Shown one piece after another: positions 2,900 through 34,248 of a DNA stretch of 64,000 bases. Within the stretch, counting starts at the first letter, position 1; every line of letters starts with the position of its first letter. Source of the DNA: a virus. Taxonomy: Duplodnaviria; Caudoviricetes. A program made the position numbers and the translations under genes. Location of the stretch: the IMG/VR virus record IMGVR_UViG_3300029305_006387, positions 3,221 to 67,220 of that record; one strand, written 5' to 3'. The notes below the pieces were generated by a model. That model had not been told where the DNA came from and did not search any database. It saw only the letters and a program-made list of their open reading frames with translations.

Positions 2900-3298
2900 T
2901 TAAGCTAATAATAGTTCGGGGTTGTCGTATATATTGCCGATTATTTCGTATTCAACATTGCACATTGAAGTAAAGGCGGTGAACGTTTCTGTTCCCATTC
3001 TTTTCCACAAAAGACCAAAAGAACCATTGCGGAATGCTACCACGCCGTTCACGGGCATAGAGTGCAAGAACAATCCTGTTAAAATATCGCCTTCAAAAAT
3101 GTCCTTTTTGTTCTTATCCGTCAAGTCCGTAAACTGTCCTACGGACTCCTTGTCAACGTCGGCGATTATTCGATTTCCGTATCTGTCTTTGTAGATTATT
3201 CTCGGATAATCCTTGTCAAGACTATCGAGCATACCATAAAGCCAATCCTTATTAAGTATTCCTGTTCTATCTTTTCCCCTAAACAAACGCTCTATCAT
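2900..3298 (-). CDS. YopX family protein
   Basis: LFRGK...W.YG; SVGQFTDLTDKNKKDIFEGDI; EIIGNIYDNPELL. Confidence 0.9.
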   Translation of the reverse strand: MIERLFRGKDRTGILNKDWLYGMLDSLDKDYPRIIYKDRYGNRIIADVDKESVGQFTDLTDKNKKDIFEGDILTGLFLHSMPVNGVVAFRNGSFGLLWKRMGTETFTAFTSMCNVEYEIIGNIYDNPELLLA

Positions 3299-14559: not shown

Positions 14560-14634
14560 TGGGGTTTCGCCAAGCGGTAAGGCACGGGACTTTGATTCCC
14601 GTATTCGGGTGTTCGATTCACTTAACCCCAGCCA
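14560..14634 (+). tRNA. tRNA-Gln(TTG)
   Basis: Cloverleaf; anticodon arm CGGGA-CTTTGAT-TCCCG; TTCGATT T-loop; encoded CCA. Confidence 0.9.
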
Positions 14635-14735
14635 ACGAACCTTGCACGGGAACTGTGTTTGTTTGGCTTTGCGCCCTACACAGTCCGTACCACGCAAGGT
14701 CTGCGGGAATACGGATTTATCTTTATTCCCTTAAT

Positions 14736-14829
14736 GCAAGTTTGTCCGAGTTCGGTTGATGGAAGCGGTCTTGAAAACCGCCGTACTCTTCCACGAGTAC
14801 CGGGAGTTCAAATCTCTCAACTTGCGCCA
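14736..14829 (+). tRNA. tRNA-Ser(TGA)
   Basis: GCGGT-CTTGAAA-ACCGC anticodon arm, long variable arm, encoded CCA. Confidence 0.9.
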
Positions 14830-14967
14830 AATCTTTTCAAATCTCCTGAAGTGATAAGAAAAGAACGTAAATTGGGACAACGGTAAAACCCAATTAGTCG
14901 GTCGGCTAAACACCATTTCCGCAAAAGAAACAGCATACATCGAGCTTACCTATTTTGCGGAACAAAT

Positions 14968-15043
14968 AGCGGGATAGAGCAGTTGGTAGCTTGCCGGGGT
15001 CATAGCCCGGAGGTCGTGGGTTCGAGTCCTACTCCCGCCCCCA
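14968..15043 (+). tRNA. initiator tRNA-fMet(CAT)
   Basis: CAT anticodon, 1:72 mismatch (A:C), three consecutive G-C pairs in anticodon stem, encoded CCA. Confidence 0.85.
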
Positions 15044-15384
15044 TCTCACACGCGCGTGGGTTTTTCCGTTTGTCGGTATCGTCGAATAACCGTCGGTTGG
15101 TGGCGACAACCATAAAAGTATGCTGCGTGAGTTCGGTCGAAAGACCATCAAATCTCATTAGGCTGACAACCTAATACATCTTGTTATGTGCGCAAAACTG
15201 TAAATGTGCGACCGTCGTTCAGTTATTTTAACTGCTTGGCGATTGTGCGGAGTGCGTTGCTCTCGATAAACGATAGTTCTTGTAGAATACAAGATATAGT
15301 AAGGCATAGGCGAGGGTCTTGCAGAATCTAATATTTTCCGTCGCGCGGCGTTTGTCGCCTACGAAGGCTACGCGACAACATAAT

Positions 15385-15702
15385 GGGGCAGTCATTGGTT
15401 TCGATTGCTGTGTAAGTTCATTAAACCCGCACGGGTGCTACCGCCGTTACGGTAGGAAAAATATAAACGCTGACACAAGAGCAGTAGCTTAACCTTTAAG
15501 CACCAAAACGGAGAGTTCCATAACAACTCCTGATGGTTTAGGAATTTGGATAAGAACGCCGTAATCCGAATAAAACGGCATCGCGCCGACGGCGTATGGT
15601 CGGTGGTGGAAGGATTGTGCCGTGTACATCCCCAAAATTGCGGTAGAGAGTTTAGTGCGCGAGCATTGCAAGACGTCGGTTCGACCCCGACCTGCTCCAC
15701 CA
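15385..15702 (+). ncRNA. ssrA: tmRNA
   Basis: 5' GGGGCAG pairs with 3' CTGCTCC-ACCA with G3:U70; T-arm GTCGG-TTCGACC-CCGAC; ATAAAC followed by tag ORF ADTRAVA* (15469-15492). Confidence 0.9.
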
Positions 15703-15707
15703 AATGT

Positions 15708-15795
15708 GCGGAAATCCCATAATCGGTATTGGAACGGTTTGCTAAACCGTCGTCGAAAAATCGGCTTGCAGGTTCGACCCCTGCTTTCCGCGCCA
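15708..15795 (+). tRNA. tRNA-Ser(GCT)
   Basis: ACGGT-TTGCTAA-ACCGT anticodon arm, long variable arm, encoded CCA. Confidence 0.9.
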
Positions 15796-15799
15796 ATAT

Positions 15800-15875
15800 G
15801 CTATCGTAGCTCAACAGGCAGAGCGGGTGATTTGTAATCATCAGGTTGTCGGTTCGATTCCGTTCGGTAGCTCCA
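15800..15875 (+). tRNA. tRNA-Thr(TGT)
   Basis: GGTGA-TTTGTAA-TCATC anticodon arm, encoded CCA. Confidence 0.9.
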
Positions 15876-28717: not shown

Positions 28718-29466
28718 AATACATTGGGAGCAAGTCGAAAATTGCATCGGAGATTGTGCCGATTTTGCAGAACATCATAGACGAAAATAAAATTGAGTTT
28801 TACATAGAACCTTTTGTGGGTGGGTTTAATATTATTGATAAAATCAAATGCGTTGTGCGCATAGGCGCGGATATTGATAAGCTCGTGTGCAATCTCGTTG
28901 TTGAGTGCAGGAGAAATCCTTGTTTACTTGATACACTTAAAACGCCAACACGCGAAGAATATTACGACGTTCGGGATAATCCGCATAAATACCAAAGTTG
29001 GTACAGGGCGGCAATACTTCTCTTTGCATCGTATAATTCCCGTGTGTACGGCGGTTGCTACGGCGCGACGGCTAAAACGAAAGACGGAAAAACTCGTGAT
29101 TATTTTGAAGAAGCGAAGAGGAATTTCCAAAATCAACTTCCCAAATTAACAAATATATTCATTCAAAACTGCGATTATAGAAAAATGGTATTGCCAAAGC
29201 CCGCAAAAATGTTATTTTATTGCGACCCGCCTTACGCTGAAGGAATTGGCTACGGGGAGGGATTCAATACCGAAGAGTTTTGGGATTGGTGCAGAGAGCG
29301 AACCAAAGAAGGAAATATAGTTATTGTTAGCGAAAACTCTGCGCCGAAAGATTTTGCTTGCATTTGGGAAAAGGGCGTTGAAAGTCATTTGAATAATCGC
29401 AATAAGACGAGAAAAACAGAAAGACTTTTTATGTGTATGGATTGCACGTATGGGGTGCAGTCGTGA
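28714..29466 (+). CDS. D12-class (Dam-like) N6-adenine DNA methyltransferase
   Basis: KYIGSKSK, YIEPFVGG, FYCDPPY; intact frame. Confidence 0.9.
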   Translation: MKYIGSKSKIASEIVPILQNIIDENKIEFYIEPFVGGFNIIDKIKCVVRIGADIDKLVCNLVVECRRNPCLLDTLKTPTREEYYDVRDNPHKYQSWYRAAILLFASYNSRVYGGCYGATAKTKDGKTRDYFEEAKRNFQNQLPKLTNIFIQNCDYRKMVLPKPAKMLFYCDPPYAEGIGYGEGFNTEEFWDWCRERTKEGNIVIVSENSAPKDFACIWEKGVESHLNNRNKTRKTERLFMCMDCTYGVQS

Positions 29467-29669
29467 AATACAAGAAGGTTGACGAGTATATAACCTACAC
29501 CCCGCCCGAAGAGATTGCAATCTGTGAAGATTGTCCATACCCAACGGCGCAATGCGGCGATAGAGGGTGCAGACACTTTCTATCAGCAAAGAAAGCATTG
29601 GAAGAGAAACGAAGAAAGGAAAAACAGAACGGTGGAAAAGTACATAAACAAAATCATTCACGCGGATAG
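29463..29669 (+). CDS. small Cys-rich hypothetical protein
   Basis: ICEDCPYP...C...C. Confidence 0.5.
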   Translation: MKYKKVDEYITYTPPEEIAICEDCPYPTAQCGDRGCRHFLSAKKALEEKRRKEKQNGGKVHKQNHSRG

Positions 29670-30347
29670 CTACGACTTCATAAAAAGCATCCCCGATAAG
29701 AGTATTGATTGTATCTATACGGATATTCCCTATTTATATGTAAACGGCGGCGTTGGGCATAGTGAGTTGTGTGTGAGAACGGCGAGAAAGAAAAAAGAGC
29801 TTGAAGATATTTCAAAAGGGATTGATTACTCCATTCTCGAAGAGTTCAAAAGGGTTCTCAAAAAAGTCAACATTTTCATTTGGTGCAGTAAGATGCAACT
29901 GCTTGATATTATGAAATGGGGGGGGGGGGTTATAATACTGACTTGTTAGTATGGTGTAAGACGAACCCTACTCCGCAAACGAATAATATTTGGTTGCCCG
30001 ATTTGGAGTATTGCGTATATATGCGGGAGTTCGGCGTACCCTTAAACGACGGCTACGAGCTGAAAAGTAAATGGTATTGCTCCCCGGCGAATAAAAGCGA
30101 CAAGGATTTATTCGAGCATCCAACGATTAAACCCCTGCAACTTGTGGAACGGCATTTGCTACACGCAACGCAGCCAAACGATATTGTAGCAGATTTCTTT
30201 GTTGGGAGTGGCACGACAGCTGTCGCCTGCAAGGAGATAGGGCGGCGGTATATCGGGGTCGAAATTGAAGAAAAGTGGGTAAAGGTCGCAAACGATAGGC
30301 TGAACGGAATAGACCAAAATGGACAAATAAGCTTCTTTTTAAGATAA
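29632..30347 (+). pseudogene. beta-class N4/N6 DNA methyltransferase, frameshifted at G12 tract (phase-OFF candidate)
   Basis: IYTDIPY in 5' frame; HPTIKP and DFFVGSGTT in 3' frame; junction is G12 at 29918-29929; G13 or G10 restores one ORF. Confidence 0.85.
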
Positions 30348-30364
30348 CATTTCAGGAGAACAGG

Positions 30365-30739
30365 ATGGATAAAGCAAAGATAAAAGCACAGTTTCTTAAA
30401 TACAGCAAGGAGCAAATTATAGATGCAATGCTTTCGGAAACAATCTTCAATGAAGCAAGCTGTATCCTGCATCGTTGTTGGCATACGAAACACGAAGAGC
30501 TTTACAAGGCTATGTGCAAAGCCGGAGAAGAAGAGAATGCTGCGCTAACTGCTTTCATTGAATACCAAAAAGAACTCGCCGCAAAGTATGGCGACGGGGA
30601 AAAGTTTAAGTTTTCAAGGCTGTCGTCGCAAGAATCTATAAAGTATGATAAACTGTCGGCGGCGTGGGATGAAACGCGTAAACGATACGAAAAAGCAAAC
30701 AAACAAATCGACGCCTTTTACAAGGAGTGCAAGTTATGA
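30365..30739 (+). CDS. hypothetical protein
   Basis: 124 aa ORF with AGGA SD. Confidence 0.55.
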   Translation: MDKAKIKAQFLKYSKEQIIDAMLSETIFNEASCILHRCWHTKHEELYKAMCKAGEEENAALTAFIEYQKELAAKYGDGEKFKFSRLSSQESIKYDKLSAAWDETRKRYEKANKQIDAFYKECKL

Positions 30740-31020
30740 AACCTTCGTTAAACAGAACGGTTTATTGCATATACGAAGATTCCATACTCACGGAAGAAGT
30801 TTACGCACTCGGTGCGGACAGCTTTATTGTTGCGAGCTTCGGGAGTATGACAAATTCCGATAGTTGGGAATATTTCTTTGAAGAGTACAATGAAACTTGG
30901 TTCACAAGCCTTGCAAGAGCAAAGAAAAAATTGAAGGCTAAATACCATAGAGAACACGGAAAATCTTGTACTTTTGTCGAGATTGAGAGCGGATATTACG
31001 AGGCTATACCTGAAAAATGA
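30727..31020 (+). CDS. hypothetical protein
   Basis: ORF overlapping both neighbours. Confidence 0.55.
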   Translation: MQVMKPSLNRTVYCIYEDSILTEEVYALGADSFIVASFGSMTNSDSWEYFFEEYNETWFTSLARAKKKLKAKYHREHGKSCTFVEIESGYYEAIPEK

Positions 31021-32158
31021 CAAATTATCGCCTTCTTAACAAATACATAACCGAAGAAATAGACCCAAACGCGGTTTACGTTCTCTCGCTTTCATACGGA
31101 AAAGATAGTCTTGCTTGCCTTGGGGCGATTGAAAAACTTGGACTTCCGCTCCACAGAATCGTACACGCAGAGGTGTGGGCTACGGACACAATCCCCGCCG
31201 ACTTGCCGCCTATGATGGAATTTAAGGCAAGGGCAGATGAAATTATAGAACGGCGTTGGGGAATAAAAGTCGAGCATATTTGCGCAACGAAGAAGGTTTG
31301 CGGGGGGGGGCAACAAAAACTCTCTTACGAGCAAATGTTCTACAATGTGCTTGAAAGTGGACAGTTTGCAGGAGCAATCAAAGGATTCCCTCTTACAATC
31401 GGAAGTTGGTGTAAAAAGCTCAAATACGAAAACGGAGCGGTTGACGTACGAAGATATATTCTATCGAGTTGTGCAATCGCGGGGGGGGCAAGGATTTACG
31501 GTTTTCCGATGCTCGGCGGGCAATGGTGCAACTCGGCTCTCAAAATGCAAGCCTTCCGACAGACTCAATCACGGGCTTTGCGACGAAATGGAGTCAATAC
31601 TGCACGGGGGAACTCAAACGAACCGCATTACGGGCTTTCCCATTTCAGTCAACCGGGGAAATTGGTGTACCCAACTCAAACAAAGGGTTTTCCAAAAGCC
31701 CGAACACGACGGGCGGTATAAATGTCGTGCAGTATCTTGGGATTGCGGCGGACGAGCCTTTAAGAATTAAAAAACACGCCAAACGAAAAGATATTATATT
31801 GCCACTTGCAGAAATTGGGTGGGATGAAGATTATTGCGGATTGTGGGCAAAATACAATGATTTGCTATCGCCGACATATACGACGGCGACAAGGGGTGGC
31901 TGTTGGTTCTGCCACAACCAAGGGGTTGAGCAATTAAGGTTATTGCGAAAGAATTACCCTGACCTTTGGGAAATCTTATTAAAGTGGGACAAGGACAGCC
32001 CGACAACGTTTAAGCCCGACGGTCATACGGTGCGGGATTTTGACAAGAGATTCGAGATGGAAGATAAAGGAATTATCAACCCAAACGACACGTTTCGGTG
32101 GAAATACCTTACAGAACCGCCGCGAATAAGGCAAATGTCTATTTTTGACATTATTTAG
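31017..32158 (+). CDS. PAPS-reductase-family (PP-loop) protein split over three overlapping frames, with cassette array
   Basis: SLSYGKDS PP-loop in frame of 31017; YLGIAADEP and RGGCWFC in frame ending 32158; G9 (31302-31310) and G8 (31481-31488) tracts between them. Confidence 0.85.
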
Positions 32159-32170
32159 GAGAAGAATAAA

Positions 32171-33121
32171 ATGTTTCAAATGAGCTTATTTGACGGCAGT
32201 CAGCCGTTCAAAATAGATAAACCTATACGCCTAATAGAGCTTTTTGCAGGGTATGGGAGTCAAGCACTTTCCCTTAAATATCTCGGCGTACCCTTTGAAC
32301 ACCACGTTATAAGCGAATGGGCGGTAAAATCCATTCAAGCGTATAAGGATATGCACTTTGCAGGCGACTCAACGGATTACTCTATGGGGATGACCGACGG
32401 GGAACTCGTGGACTTTCTCGACGGGAGAATATCAGCAGACTACAACAAGCCTATGACCCGCAAACAAATAGAGAAACATAACGGTGGCGAAAAATGGCGT
32501 AGGGCAGTTTATAACAATATGAAAGCAACGAGAAACCTTGGTTCTATAACAATGGCAAGGGGGGGGGATTTACAGGTTGAAGAAACCGACAAATACTGCT
32601 ACATACTCACCTACTCATTCCCCTGCCAAGACCTTTCTTCGGCGGGAAAGGGCGCGGGGATGGAGAAAGGGAGTGGAACGCGTAGTGGATTGCTGTGGGA
32701 GGTGGAGCGATTGCTGAAGGAATGCAACGAACTTCCGCAGGTTCTTCTAATGGAGAATGTTCCTGATGTTACGAGCAGGAAAAATATGCCGCATTTCGCG
32801 CAATGGATAGCTTTTCTCGACGAGCTTGGGTACAAAACGAAATGGGCAAATTTGAATGCAAAGGAATTTGGCATTCCGCAAAACCGAGAGAGATGCTTTG
32901 CGGTTTCTATCCTTGGGGATTACTACTACAATCACCCCACGGGGTTTCCCCTAAAAAAAAGACTGCGCGACGTCCTTCAAAAAAATGTGGACGAAAGCTA
33001 TTATCTAAAAGAAGAAACAATACAAGCGTTAAACCTTCATAAAGAACGCCACGATGCCAAGGGCAATGGATTCGGTTGGCAACCTACGACGGGGGGGGTA
33101 CGCAAAGACTATCAAGACTGA
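32171..33121 (+). CDS. C5-cytosine DNA methyltransferase, N-terminal part (motifs I-VIII)
   Basis: LIELFAGYGSQ (I), SFPCQDLS (IV), MENV (VI), PQNRERCF (VIII); G9 in frame at 32559-32567; frame ends shortly after G8 at 33091-33098. Confidence 0.9.
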   Translation: MFQMSLFDGSQPFKIDKPIRLIELFAGYGSQALSLKYLGVPFEHHVISEWAVKSIQAYKDMHFAGDSTDYSMGMTDGELVDFLDGRISADYNKPMTRKQIEKHNGGEKWRRAVYNNMKATRNLGSITMARGGDLQVEETDKYCYILTYSFPCQDLSSAGKGAGMEKGSGTRSGLLWEVERLLKECNELPQVLLMENVPDVTSRKNMPHFAQWIAFLDELGYKTKWANLNAKEFGIPQNRERCFAVSILGDYYYNHPTGFPLKKRLRDVLQKNVDESYYLKEETIQALNLHKERHDAKGNGFGWQPTTGGVRKDYQD

Positions 33122-33396
33122 AAGCGGATACAGACCAAGTTCAAACTTTGTTATTGAGCAACCAAGGGAAAACGGTAAAGAAATTCGTGGACGTCGCGGG
33201 AACGGTGATGGCGCGAGATTGGAAGGGATTTGGCAATCAAGCGATGACGGCGGTGATGGAAACAAAAAAAACAATAGTTGTGAGCCGTCCGCACGGCTAT
33301 AATCGCGGTGGGATAGAAGAAACGGATATTTTCCCGACGGTGCGAAAATCGTCAACTATGGACGGAAATAATGGAGTGGTGGAATGGAAGAAATAA
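33076..33396 (+). other. out-of-frame TRD-like cassettes of the C5 methyltransferase
   Basis: VAGTVMARDWKG...AVME and IFPTVRKSS...GVVE units; third frame carries YAKTIKTESG...FVIE. Confidence 0.65.
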
Positions 33397-33992
33397 CAAG
33401 GTGTAAGCAGGTGGCAACGCTCACCGGTGGAAAATGGGATAGGACAATAGAAGCAAGTAGGCGTGTTTATTCTATCGAACATTTAGCCCCTACCGTAACT
33501 TGCGCGGGGGGGGGGAATCAAGAAGTGAAGATTTTAGAGCCTATGATAGTTGATGATACCTATAAGGGCAGAGAGCCGAGGGTAACGGATAACAGACCAA
33601 CGATTAGAAGTAAGCGCGACGGGTTGAAAGTTTTAGAGCCTATCATCTACGACGGATTTAATCAACAGGTACGCGCCGACCAAAGTTGTGTGGGCGCACT
33701 CACAAGGAATTGTGGGGCTGACCTTAAACGAAACGGTCAAGGGGTAGTCGAACCGCAAGAAACGGGCGTTCGAGTGCGCAAACTCACAGAAAAGGAGTGC
33801 TTTCGACTTCAAGCGGTAAAAGATGAAGATTACGAAAGAGTGCGCAAAAATCAATCAAAATCGAGTAGCTATCATTTGGCAGGCGACAGTATTTGCACAG
33901 TTTGCCTTATGGCTATTTTTGGTGGTATGATGGGCGTAGATTGGAGAAAAAAGATTGACGAGTTGGTAGAGGGACTGAAAGACAATGAGTAG
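33384..33992 (+). CDS. C5-cytosine DNA methyltransferase, C-terminal part (TRD repeats plus motifs IX-X)
   Basis: RVRKLTEKECFRLQ (IX), YHLAGDSI (X); own GGAG SD and ATG; G10 in frame at 33506-33515. Confidence 0.85.
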   Translation: MEEITRCKQVATLTGGKWDRTIEASRRVYSIEHLAPTVTCAGGGNQEVKILEPMIVDDTYKGREPRVTDNRPTIRSKRDGLKVLEPIIYDGFNQQVRADQSCVGALTRNCGADLKRNGQGVVEPQETGVRVRKLTEKECFRLQAVKDEDYERVRKNQSKSSSYHLAGDSICTVCLMAIFGGMMGVDWRKKIDELVEGLKDNE

Positions 33993-34248
33993 AGAAAACA
34001 TAATAAAATTTGTACCACCCGTACCGCTTGCAAAAAGATGTACCTTCTGTGGCGATTTGAGAAAAGAAGCGCAATTTCTATGCGATATGCCGATAGGAAC
34101 GAGCGTGAATACGATTGATTTCAAAAAGCGGTTGATTACTTGCAATAAAATTCTTTGTCGAGATTGCACAACGCAGGTAAACGGGTTTGACTTTTGTCCC
34201 GACTGTATCAAAAAAATAAAATCTGCTAAAAAGGGAGCGCGAGATTGA
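33985..34248 (+). CDS. Cys-rich zinc-finger hypothetical protein
   Basis: CTFC...LCD...TCNKILCRDC...FCPDC. Confidence 0.6.
   Translation: MSRENIIKFVPPVPLAKRCTFCGDLRKEAQFLCDMPIGTSVNTIDFKKRLITCNKILCRDCTTQVNGFDFCPDCIKKIKSAKKGARD

Follow-up and report, generated by a model that had tools for sequence, protein, structure and literature searches.

Stacked cassettes in an apparently broken gene

Is a gut-phage gene whose conserved ends lie in different reading frames, with four variants of one internal segment between them, a relic, or a device that selects among proteins? The question is raised by a PAPS-reductase-like gene at 31017-32158 of the window, by which we mean the whole 64,000-nt stretch analyzed here (positions 3,221 to 67,220 of the viral record IMGVR_UViG_3300029305_006387). 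Its PP-loop motif SLSYGKDS is read in frame A (the phase of 31017) versus frame B (the phase of 31019) for its GGCWFC motif; frame C is the phase of 31018. In between are four GFP..WC..LK cassettes distributed over the three frames, two upstream half-cassettes and two G tracts of nine and eight bases. We consider it likely that the apparently broken gene is a reading-frame switch, in which tract length sets the frame, each frame holds one cassette copy and frameshifting returns the ribosome to a common frame. The features are as follows:

31017..31301, + strand: N-terminal PP-loop segment (SLSYGKDS), frame A, from the ORF reading and a phrog_424 match; tblastn anchor for relatives
31302..31310, + strand: SSR1, G9 tract at the junction of N-terminus and cassette 1; variants G10 (contig X4) and G9+T (prophage L084)
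31320..31424, + strand: whole cassette 1, frame A, comprising half a1 LSYEQMFY (31320-31343) and half b1 GFPLTIGSWCKKLK (31383-31424)
31377-31424: cassette 1, IKGFPLTIGSWCKKLK, frame A
31441..31464, + strand: half-cassette a2, the second upstream half, LTYEDIFY, frame C, from the sequence, relatives and a substitution against L084
31481..31488, + strand: SSR2, G8 tract at the a/b junction; variants in X4, X19, X2 and L084
31494-31544: cassette 2, IYGFPMLGGQWCNSALK, frame A
31500..31544, + strand: half b2, GFPMLGGQWCNSALK, frame A, +1 relative to the C-terminal frame
31568-31618: cassette 3, ITGFATKWSQYCTGELK, frame B
31574..31618, + strand: half b3, GFATKWSQYCTGELK, frame B, the C-terminal frame; orthologues in L032, L034, L035, L038 and L084-L086
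31627-31680: cassette 4, ITGFPISVNRGNWCTQLK, frame C
31633..31680, + strand: half b4, GFPISVNRGNWCTQLK, frame C, +2 relative to the C-terminal frame
31685..31692, + strand: putative slippery site G GGT TTT C
31688..32158, + strand: C-terminal segment, frame B (VVQYLGIAADEP ... GGCWFC ...)
31698..31729, + strand: H-type pseudoknot, from covariation among 53 distinct versions and linkage to multi-frame loci; stem 1 pairs GCCCG (31698-31702) with CGGGC (31710-31714), stem 2 pairs loop CACGA (31705-31709) with TCGTG (31725-31729)

All four cassettes end in CTCAAA, and cassettes 3 and 4 additionally have ACGGGCTTT in common. The ORFs 31017..31721, 31345..31770 and 31469..32158 overlap, so that all three frames are open over 31469-31721. 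By arithmetic on the window, a change from G8 to G9 at 31481 yields an ORF product of 380 aa, and the CTCAAA copies of cassettes 1 and 2 are spaced 194 and 74 nt from that of cassette 3. A preliminary description of this DNA had listed the cassettes, upstream segments, tracts and open frames, all of which we found where it placed them, and its length and spacing arithmetic was correct on recount.

Recurrence of the array

The whole array is present in a 16,083-nt contig from another study (X4, depth about 40), which covers 29400-34000 at 99% identity, and again in a prophage on a 228-kb metagenome-assembled genome (MAG) contig, L084. Related arrays were found at about 70 distinct loci in viral contigs and MAGs; two to four cassettes in different frames occur in most of the 80 related viral loci kept and in many MAG loci, and the relatives identified number roughly 380 in total. 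Because the independent X4 contig, L084 and dozens of lineages have it, the array is not a mis-assembly. These data contradict the possibility, raised in the preliminary description as a refutation, that homologues have a single cassette and that the array collapses several strains.

The enzyme family has >5000 members, and multi-frame forms are common in phages of animal and human gut Clostridia. All multi-frame forms identified come from metagenome-derived contigs and none was found in cultured isolates; the isolates identified (Gemmiger gallinarum, Anaerocaecibacter muris and Pumilibacter spp.) carry single-cassette genes. Loci with three cassettes occur in all three frame states (5, 7 and 4 loci), while two-cassette (GA)n loci, as assembled, were in the stop-rich frame in 11 cases, in the +1 frame in five and in the C-terminal frame in none. 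Cassette sets are mosaic among lineages, and contigs of a co-resident relative part from the window precisely at 31696, a sign that recombination may have taken place over evolutionary time.

Length variation in two coding repeats

SSR2 is G9 in X4, in X19, in one of two X2 contigs and in the MAG prophage L084. The G9 variant that had been predicted at 31481 thus exists in three other samples and one prophage, and the single X2 sample contains both G8 and G9. Across the four runs compared with the window, frame-changing indels within this gene were confined to its two G tracts; the remaining ones over the 4.6 kb compared fell in G tracts of neighboring genes, plus one in an A8 run at 33264. 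As these lengths were read from contigs, minority variants are hidden in them. The RNA run X19 contributed one colinear contig (31308-31978) with SSR2 at G9, a single length from material that may be DNA, and this contig cannot reveal transcription, RNA-level slippage or strand.

At these two junctions, relatives have tracts of G6-G13 or (GA)4-17. Eleven related loci were aligned over 575 columns, of which 106 varied, and within-gene indels occurred at poly-G only (G7, G9, G9C and G8AGG). L032, L034 and L038 are distinguished by (GA) units, and over 2.6 kb the sole difference between L140 and L141, two contigs from the same sample, is one AG unit. As in simple sequence repeat (SSR) contingency loci, both repeats are in coding sequence and have units that are not a multiple of three, and tract length differs among near-identical genomes and within a population. 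A length change in poly-G or (GA)n joins the N-terminus to different cassettes. Frame B downstream of SSR1 contains three stops before SSR2.

Selection on each cassette in its own frame

Ratios of synonymous to non-synonymous changes in the cassettes' own frames were 150/36, 208/46, 317/52 and 223/88, as compared with about 1:4 to 1:20 in the other frames. The first of these belongs to b4, for which the two other frames gave 37/131 and 9/143. Of the 11 substitutions that separate the window from L084 in the cassette zone, 10 are at third positions of the cassette's own frame: four in cassette 1 are synonymous in frame A, that at 31446 (a2) is a third-position change in frame C, and those at 31502 and 31505 (b2) are synonymous in frame A. 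Each cassette is therefore under purifying selection as coding sequence in its own frame.

Open frames follow the cassettes. All three frames were stop-free across 116-245 nt in each of 25 distinct three-cassette arrays of relatives, whereas the cassette-free frame of two-cassette relatives had 3-8 stops per roughly 265 nt. From the repeat to a conserved T tract, cassette-holding frames were stop-free in 42 of 42 arrays (25 with three cassettes and 17 with two), and the array's open frames are far beyond chance. Before the T tract, an Arg codon varies synonymously in the cassette frame (CGG, CGA, AGG and AGA); after it, synonymous variation is found in Gly and Ala codons of the C-terminal frame. 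The frame of synonymous variation changes around the T tract, indicating that selection flips there.

A T tract followed by a covarying pseudoknot

At the putative slippery site, frames B and A both read TTT (at 31688 and 31689, respectively) and frame C reads TTC (31690), which gives a Phe codon in every frame. In 60 of 69 loci, a codon of the C-terminal frame starts with the first of the last four T's, and a C comes after them. A full X XXY YYZ heptamer is present in frame A of the window (G GGT TTT, 31685-31691); many relatives keep the TTT(T/C) part only, after GA, TG, CA, GC or AA. Forty of the 53 distinct versions have a spacer of 6 nt between T tract and pseudoknot, a distance within 5-9 nt that is followed by a covarying structure. 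The frame A stop (31719-31721) is located inside the pseudoknot.

In alignments of the T4(C/T) tract and pseudoknot, 95.1% of cells were paired versus 84.3% (sd 0.7) after shuffling, a level reached by 0 of 500 shuffles; slid controls were 30-66% paired. Changes on both sides were seen in eight of 12 pairs, with 42 compensatory cells. The structure is small (5 bp plus 5-8 bp), and its support comes from covariation alone, since nested folding energies of the element were no better than those of shuffles (z between -1.5 and +0.3). Tract and pseudoknot occurred together in 69 of 76 multi-frame loci versus two of 57 scored single-frame loci (Fisher p = 6e-27, with kinship ignored); both exceptions are misclassified multi-frame loci, and true single-frame loci lack the element. 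Rfam has no family at this site. The phage encodes tRNAs for Gln, Ser (two), Met and Thr as well as a tmRNA, but no tRNA-Phe.

From these features, -1 and probably -2 ribosomal frameshifting into the C-terminal frame would be expected. A +1 slip at TTTTC from the +2 frame was considered and rejected on pairing grounds, because a shift from UUC to UCC would not allow re-pairing; the putative route preferred for that frame is a -2 slip. Carried from frame A into frame B by a -1 shift, the window as assembled would give a 380-aa protein. The earlier statement that no full enzyme is encoded as assembled had overlooked the slippery site and pseudoknot at 31685-31729 and is probably wrong.

Enzyme family and gene neighborhood

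The sole family match was to phrog_424 'PAPS reductase' (1.5e-10 and 1.4e-20). Searches of Pfam with the window's three frames and with intact single-cassette relatives gave no match, PF01507 included, NCBIfam returned traces far below cut-off only, and a PDB sequence search gave none. Residues S12, G14, K15, D16 and S17 are invariant in 71 sequences. An AF2 model (pLDDT 90.6) had its best Foldseek matches to the PP-loop enzymes NcsA, GMP synthetase, MnmA, TtuA, LarE and TilS at probability 0.97-1.0 with TM values of only 0.35-0.39; the PAPS reductase 2oq2 scored a TMq of 0.43. With an SxGxDS-type PP-loop at its first strand-helix turn and a modeled alpha/beta fold, the protein fits the PP-loop ATP pyrophosphatase (adenine nucleotide alpha hydrolase) superfamily. 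The single-cassette form has about 260 aa, and in the model the C-terminal half opens with a core beta strand of the fold.

Immediate neighbors are a D12 N6-methyltransferase, an N6_N4 methyltransferase, two small ORFs of no family and a C5 methyltransferase. DndC, SspD and BrxP are sulfur-inserting DNA-modification enzymes with a PAPS-reductase domain (PMC12914056). These and lambda NinC-type 'PAPS reductases' have in common with our protein the PP-loop, conserved cysteines, a phage or defense context and methyltransferase neighbors. Unlike DndC, SspD and BrxP, our protein is small and has no PF01507 match, and there is no dndD, sspC or brxC partner among the immediate neighbors. Specificity for the substrate may be set by the variable segment, and DNA modification is a possible activity of the enzyme.

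Proposed mechanism of the frame switch

The two hypermutable G tracts would gain or lose bases through slipped-strand mispairing at replication. Depending on the length of SSR1, the N-terminus would read cassette 1 (frame A), skip to a2 (frame C) or stop (frame B, OFF). SSR2 length would then pick b2, b3 or b4, one GFP..WC..LK copy per frame, with unselected copies translated as stop-free filler. At TTTTC, tRNA-Phe may slip back by one base from the +1 frame and by two from the +2 frame, helped into the common C-terminal frame by the pseudoknot six nt downstream. Through this combination of frame choice and re-framing, one gene could give several full-length isoforms or none, heritably and reversibly. 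Conservation, tract variation and own-frame selection lend support to the core of the preliminary description, a library of alternative segments selected by slippage without a recombinase.

Predicted isoforms each contain 40-60 residues of filler. In the AF2 model of an in-frame multi-cassette isoform, both core halves are confident and the read-through filler forms a low-confidence loop; with almost no alignment depth in filler regions, this is weak evidence. Efficient -2 frameshifting is rare in bacteria, which counts against the proposed switch, as do the metagenome-only origin of the multi-frame forms identified and the lack of C-terminal-frame states among two-cassette (GA)n assemblies. 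The isoforms may be active and differ in target, the likely target being a nucleic-acid modification made beside the neighboring phase-variable methyltransferases.

Alternative explanations

The gene could be an ordinary ON/OFF contingency locus, its off-frame cassettes being duplication relics and its T tract and pseudoknot serving, for example, in pausing or mRNA stability. Repeat-driven ON/OFF expression is known behavior of such tracts and is now reported for phages (bioRxiv 10.1101/2025.10.21.683753). Early-stop states are common in assemblies: this phage has them in X4 and L084, and they account for 11 of the 16 two-cassette loci. Relics would decay, however, and the off-frame cassettes are under strong purifying selection in their own frames. 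Cassette frames are kept open over the whole array, cassette-free frames are not, and the pseudoknot is limited to loci where frames need rejoining. We therefore regard this explanation as unlikely.

It is quite unlikely that re-framing is absent and that +1 and +2 N-terminal fragments act alone or with a separately initiated C-terminal polypeptide, the pseudoknot tuning termination and re-initiation. Consistent with such a split enzyme, out-of-frame readings end within about 30-90 nt past the array, and an AAGGAG-like motif lies a short distance upstream of the NIVQYLG codons in several relatives. Translational coupling or an internal Shine-Dalgarno sequence was nevertheless rejected as a general route to the C-terminal half, as the window lacks the motif and the out-of-frame stops keep no constant position with respect to any start codon. 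The C-terminal half also starts with a core beta strand in the model, and a phase-locked T tract 6 nt before a pseudoknot is classic frameshift geometry.

Alternatively, the frame could be chosen mainly on RNA, by a polymerase that stutters on the G or GA tracts and makes all isoforms from each genome, with DNA lengths a by-product. Homopolymer slippage does give three-frame expression in the paramyxovirus P gene (PMC5009743), and slippage is conceivable on tracts of 8-13 G or 4-17 GA units. Against this stand the heritable DNA length variation seen between and within samples and the single length in the one RNA-library contig across SSR2, itself perhaps DNA, so that we consider a mainly RNA-level choice decidedly improbable. 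Slippage at the RNA level and at the DNA level are compatible with each other.

Exchange of cassettes by deletion or gene conversion between CTCAAA or GFP repeats seems very improbable, even though the cassettes share short identical words, their sets are mosaic and a relative's contigs diverge at 31696. Microhomology deletions at CTCAAA had been anticipated in the preliminary description; no rearranged or cassette-deleting joint occurred in four runs, relatives retain complete arrays, and near-identical loci differ in tract length, never by whole cassettes. Deletion also cannot put the last cassette in the C-terminal frame, because the spacings (58-61 nt) are all 1 modulo 3. A single 149-nt skip in X2 (31117-31267), with 24 nt on one side, is outside the array and probably from another organism. 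The locus also differs from diversity-generating retroelements, in that its cassettes are short, with only 9-24-nt words in common at 72-79% identity and differences at all four bases, and from recombinase switching (shufflons, hsdS inversion), in that all cassettes are on one strand and lack notable flanking inverted repeats.

Mis-assembly of several strains or a decaying pseudogene has a negligible probability: the source record is a metagenome-derived viral contig and the X1 and X2 contigs break at tracts, but the array is contained in the single contig X4, in L084 and in dozens of lineages, and own-frame selection and open frames speak against decay.

Relation to known systems

Contingency repeats and -1 frameshift pseudoknots are already known as parts; in the literature searched, we found no description of their combination and its logic. 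On the broader proposition we would give equal weight to either outcome: that this is a new encoding of mutually exclusive protein segments in a prokaryotic gene, with frame-stacked cassettes chosen by repeats and a convergent -1/-2 site, giving up to six full-length isoforms plus OFF from the window's two tracts and, together with phase-variable methyltransferases, varying a nucleic-acid modification or the host defenses escaped. If true, bacteria and phages would have a new coding logic that functions like mutually exclusive exons and is achieved by slippage and frameshifting, and a 1.1-kb gene would constitute a heritable, reversible library of enzyme variants. It would also be the first natural frameshift site that serves to bring several frames together in one, with a bacterial -2 event among its slips, and many 'broken' phage or metagenome genes may then be neither pseudogenes nor assembly errors. 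The system further offers a way into the question of what phage 'PAPS reductase' genes do.

Phasevarions (phase-variable Type III mod and Type I hsdS) and phage contingency loci, the latter recently described by Gomez, Barrick and Waters (bioRxiv 10.1101/2025.10.21.683753), likewise involve slippage of a coding repeat that is not a multiple of three, in DNA-modification genes, with variation between near-identical genomes. Their outcome is ON/OFF or truncation, whereas here each frame has its own copy of an internal segment and the used frames are open. A downstream signal appears to rejoin a common C-terminus, so that the outcome would be a choice of isoform plus OFF.

For the Helicobacter pylori alpha-1,2-fucosyltransferase gene futC, Wang et al. 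reportedly described a poly-C tract plus a -1 translational frameshift cassette in 1999 (Mol Microbiol). As proposed here, a hypermutable homopolymer and a ribosomal frameshift site are in one gene, and off-frame variants can yield full-length protein. The futC frameshift partially rescues the OFF state of a single sequence, in contrast to our locus with its alternative cassettes, three-frame coding and convergent Phe site. In PMC2806470 this is referred to as 'multiple mechanisms'.

Paramyxovirus P/V/W(D) genes resemble the locus in that a slippage-prone run selects among three overlapping downstream frames; in bovine parainfluenza virus 3, for example, all three frames are translated over about 300 nt once the polymerase has stuttered (PMC5009743). 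That slippage is on RNA and non-heritable, and it gives alternative C-termini from frames that never rejoin. Arterivirus -2/-1 programmed frameshifting takes place at G_GUU_UUU (PMC6675879, PMC7939443), a motif nearly the same as G GUU UUC in our +2 frame; there, as would be the case here, tRNA-Phe slips by -1 or -2 and re-pairs on a U run. In arteriviruses the slip is stimulated by a protein-RNA complex on a C-rich motif rather than by an RNA pseudoknot. Ribosomes are diverted from a single frame at the arterivirus site, whereas at ours they would pass from two frames into one.

Gene anatomy and reality of the cassette array

The window comes from a 67-kb IMG/VR viral record that CheckV classes as complete. 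The preliminary description had placed alternative cassettes (paralogous GFP..WC..LK segments, here called b-halves, with two alternative upstream segments, the a-halves) in three frames of a PAPS-reductase-like gene, and rechecking the sequence bore out all its details of this gene, including cassettes, half-cassettes, frames and tracts. Frames A, C and B are the phases of 31017, 31018 and 31019:

31017-32158, + strand: whole gene, divided among frames A, C and B, as read in the sequence
First part of the gene, + strand, frame A: PP-loop N-terminus
31302-31310, + strand: G9 tract (SSR1) after the PP-loop N-terminus
3' of the G9 tract, + strand, frame A: complete cassette 1, half a1 LSYEQMFY and half b1 GFPLTIGSWCKKLK
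Between cassette 1 and the G8 tract, + strand, frame C: second a-half (a2), LTYEDIFY
31481-31488, + strand: G8 tract (SSR2)
After the G8 tract, + strand, frames A, B and C: b-halves b2, b3 and b4, respectively
Frame B, + strand: C-terminal half, VVQYLGIAADEP ... GGCWFC

Between SSR1 and SSR2, only frame B is interrupted, by three stops; A and C stay open. The array is no artefact: in sequencing run X4, from a bovine-gut study, a 16,083-nt contig (depth ~40) spans 29400-34000 at 99% identity with every cassette placed as in the window, and the same array occurs in L084, a prophage 96.7% identical to the window that lies within a 228-kb contig from a Clostridia metagenome-assembled genome (MAG) of roe deer cecum.

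Architectures of related loci

Searches with the C-terminal half matched 235 viral and 145 genome contigs, of which 160 loci were kept. Multiple cassettes in differing frames, as described for the window, recurred in most of these, with two to four GFP..WC..LK cassettes per locus. With the frame of the C-terminal half as [0] and the others as [1] (+1) and [2] (+2), five architectures were distinguished:

Architecture 1: one in-frame cassette, no repeat, ~260 aa; all cultured isolates found are of this kind
Architecture 2: two in-frame cassettes, for example phage nd4
Architecture 3: N-terminus, (GA)n, a[0]b[0], a[1]b[1], C-terminus
Architecture 4: N-terminus, a, polyG, b[0] b[1] b[2], C-terminus
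Architecture 5 (the window's type, two repeats): N, SSR1, a b, a, SSR2, b b b, C

All multi-frame examples came from metagenomes. Successive cassettes in the related loci are spaced by 58-61 nt, that is, 1 modulo 3, so each tandem-duplicated copy lands one frame further on. The homologue in phage nd4 (OR777945.1, 2563-3531) is annotated as two ORFs. It has TGA in place of the Trp of GGCWFC that is invariant in all relatives; a point mutation, an error in sequencing or recoding of the stop could each account for this.

Codon-level selection on the cassettes

Patterns of substitution argue that every cassette is read. Orthologous +1- and +2-frame cassettes vary mostly at third codon positions of their own frame, with own-frame synonymous/non-synonymous counts of 150/36, 208/46, 317/52 and 223/88, against ratios of about 1:4 to 1:20 when read in either of the remaining frames; cassettes were chosen by motif for these counts, a possible bias, yet all cassettes are intact in every locus of the groups. 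Of the 11 substitutions that separate the window from L084 within the cassette zone, 10 fall at own-frame third positions, distributed across frames A and C. In 25/25 distinct three-cassette arrays, no stop interrupts any of the three frames between the repeat and the array end (116-245 nt). In two-cassette arrays, both cassette-holding frames are open across 260-337 nt, and the third has 3-8 stops.

Length variation at the repeat tracts

In 11 related loci with 106 of 575 columns variable, indels within the gene were confined to the poly-G tract (G7, G9, G9C, G8AGG), joining the N-terminus to b[0], b[1] or b[2] depending on the sample. Differences in GA units likewise change the cassette joined to the N-terminus in L032, L034 and L038. 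For the window's own phage, every frame-changing indel that four runs showed within the gene fell in one of its two G tracts: SSR1 is G10 in X4, and SSR2 is G9 in X4, X19 and one of two X2 contigs. Across the rest of the 4.6 kb compared, the other indels were in the neighbours' tracts, an A8 run at 33264 and one in-frame 3-nt indel. L084 has G9+T at SSR1 and G9 at SSR2. Two contigs binned together in one Oscillospiraceae MAG from roe deer colon (L140 and L141; 27,090 and 27,088 bp) are identical across the 2.6 kb compared save one AG unit in the second repeat of the gene's homologue, a length polymorphism within one sample that sufficed to split the assembly.

Among two-cassette (GA)n loci (L005-L008, L020, L021, L037, L042, L046, L049, L051, L052, L054-L056, L059), the assembled N-terminus lies in the stop-rich third frame in 11, in the +1 frame in 5 and never in the C-terminal frame [0]; selection or assembly bias on long GA repeats could account for this absence. 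Many relatives (L022, L029-L033, L045, L058 and L060-L079) have a further G7-G8 tract in Arg-Gly-Gly codons just before CWFC, ~+170 to +190 of the C-terminal match and in frame as assembled, which could be an additional ON/OFF switch. The window has only G4 there (~31892).

A putative re-framing element 3' of the last cassette

At its natural distance from the C-terminus, the last cassette of a multi-frame locus is never in the C-terminal frame, and some re-framing step is therefore required. Directly 3' of its LK-x-R-(V/C)-F lies an element that begins with four T's and a C or T; an H-type pseudoknot comes next, after a spacer that is 6 nt in most cases. The element is present in 69/76 distinct multi-frame loci and absent from all true single-frame loci; L045 and L068, which have it but were scored single-frame, proved to be multi-frame loci missed by the classification. 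L009 and L093, multi-frame loci without it, carry an (AG)n repeat at the same place. Codon-level selection in related loci changes over at the T tract.

Stem 1 has 5 bp (GCxCC/GGx'GC), its middle pair being C-G, U-A, G-C or A-U by lineage; stem 2 joins the 3' part of the hairpin loop (UGCACAA) to UUGUGCA within NIVQYLG codons and covaries (CACGA/UCGUG in the window; GAACGA/UCGUUC, UGUACAA/UUGUACA, UGAACAA/UUGUUCA and UCACAG/CUGUGA elsewhere). In a plain MAFFT alignment of 38 distinct element versions, 95.1% of cells were paired, compared with 84.3% (sd 0.7) in shuffles, a value reached by 0/500; 8 of 12 pairs vary on both sides, and slid controls were 30-66% paired. Protein constraint does not explain the covariation, because changes alter the amino acid on one side and are mostly synonymous on the other. 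Nested folding of this small pseudoknot gives energies no better than those of shuffles.

In 60/69 loci, the last four T's begin with the first base of a [0] codon and precede a C, and this TTTTC reads TTT in [0], TTT in [1] and TTC in [2]. We infer ribosomal frameshifting here: tRNA-Phe arriving in [1] would slip back one base and in [2] two bases, and in [0] it would have nowhere to slip. A -2 step is unusual for bacteria. Read in frame A, the window's putative slippery site is a full heptamer, G GGT TTT (31685-31691), which is missing in many relatives.

As assembled (G9, G8), translation would run from the N-terminus through cassette 1 and, out of frame, the a2 zone to b2 and the slippery site in frame A, where a -1 slip would give a protein of ~380 aa. 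With SSR2 at G9 (X2, X19, X4, L084), the window's N-terminus would be joined through cassette 1 and b3 to the C-terminus, with no frameshift needed. One base more in SSR1 (X4, L084) would bring an early stop (OFF); one base less would skip cassette 1, and a2 would be read, then b2, b3 or b4. The two tracts would thus offer six full-length isoforms plus OFF. The isoforms' filler is 40-60 residues, drawn by AF2 as a loop between two well-folded halves.

In X1 and X2, contigs from a related phage present in the same samples match the window through b4 and the slippery site and diverge exactly at 31696, the pseudoknot start, continuing with a pseudoknot version whose stem is GCGCC/GGCGC, a pattern that points to recombination between the array and the C-terminal modules. 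The phage also encodes five clustered tRNAs (Gln, Ser-UGA, Met, Ser-GCU, Thr; 14560-15875) and a tmRNA (15385-15702) but no tRNA-Phe.

Comparison with known systems

Helicobacter pylori futC combines a poly-C tract and a -1 frameshift cassette in one gene. Modification genes that repeats switch ON and OFF are long established and were recently reported in phages as well (bioRxiv 10.1101/2025.10.21.683753), paramyxovirus P genes use three frames following polymerase stuttering (PMC5009743) and arteriviruses make -2 and -1 slips on G_GUU_UUU (PMC6675879, PMC7939443). In none of these are alternative internal segments layered one to a frame and the frames subsequently merged, and our literature searches found no published description of such an arrangement.

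Enzyme identity and neighboring modification genes

The gene product matches only phrog_424 ('PAPS reductase'); Pfam, NCBIfam and PDB sequence searches gave no match. The family has >5000 members. An AF2 model of a single-cassette relative was confident (pLDDT 90.6), least so in the b-loop, and resembles PP-loop enzymes, with all matches weak (TM 0.35-0.43). Nearest were the [4Fe-4S] thiolases NcsA and TtuA, then MnmA, LarE, TilS and GMP synthetase; PAPS reductase had the best TM-score among the weak matches. Conservation of the cassette Cys and of CWFC in the C-terminal half is complete or nearly so, which would fit a three-Cys cluster site.

The neighbors are a D12 N6-methyltransferase and two split methyltransferase genes:

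29515-30347: N6_N4 DNA methyltransferase (PF01555), split at the G12 tract 29918-29929
32171-33992: C5 cytosine methyltransferase (PF00145), split at further G tracts across three frames in the target-recognition region

Together with the likeness to PP-loop enzymes, this setting makes a role of the enzyme in nucleic-acid modification plausible. The tract at 29918 varies between samples (G12 in the window, G9 in X4, G10 in X19), and G10 would bring both N6_N4 methyltransferase halves into one frame. The tract at 33091 is G8 in the window, G9 in X4 and L084 and G10 in X2; that at 33506 is G10 in the window, G8 in X19 and G12 in X4. At 33264, X4 and L084 have A7 in place of A8; the G9 at 32559 showed no variation. 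The 64-kb window contains no C runs of 7 or more, and 6 of its 7 G runs of 8 or more lie within three adjacent modification genes: the two split methyltransferase genes and the cassette gene between them.
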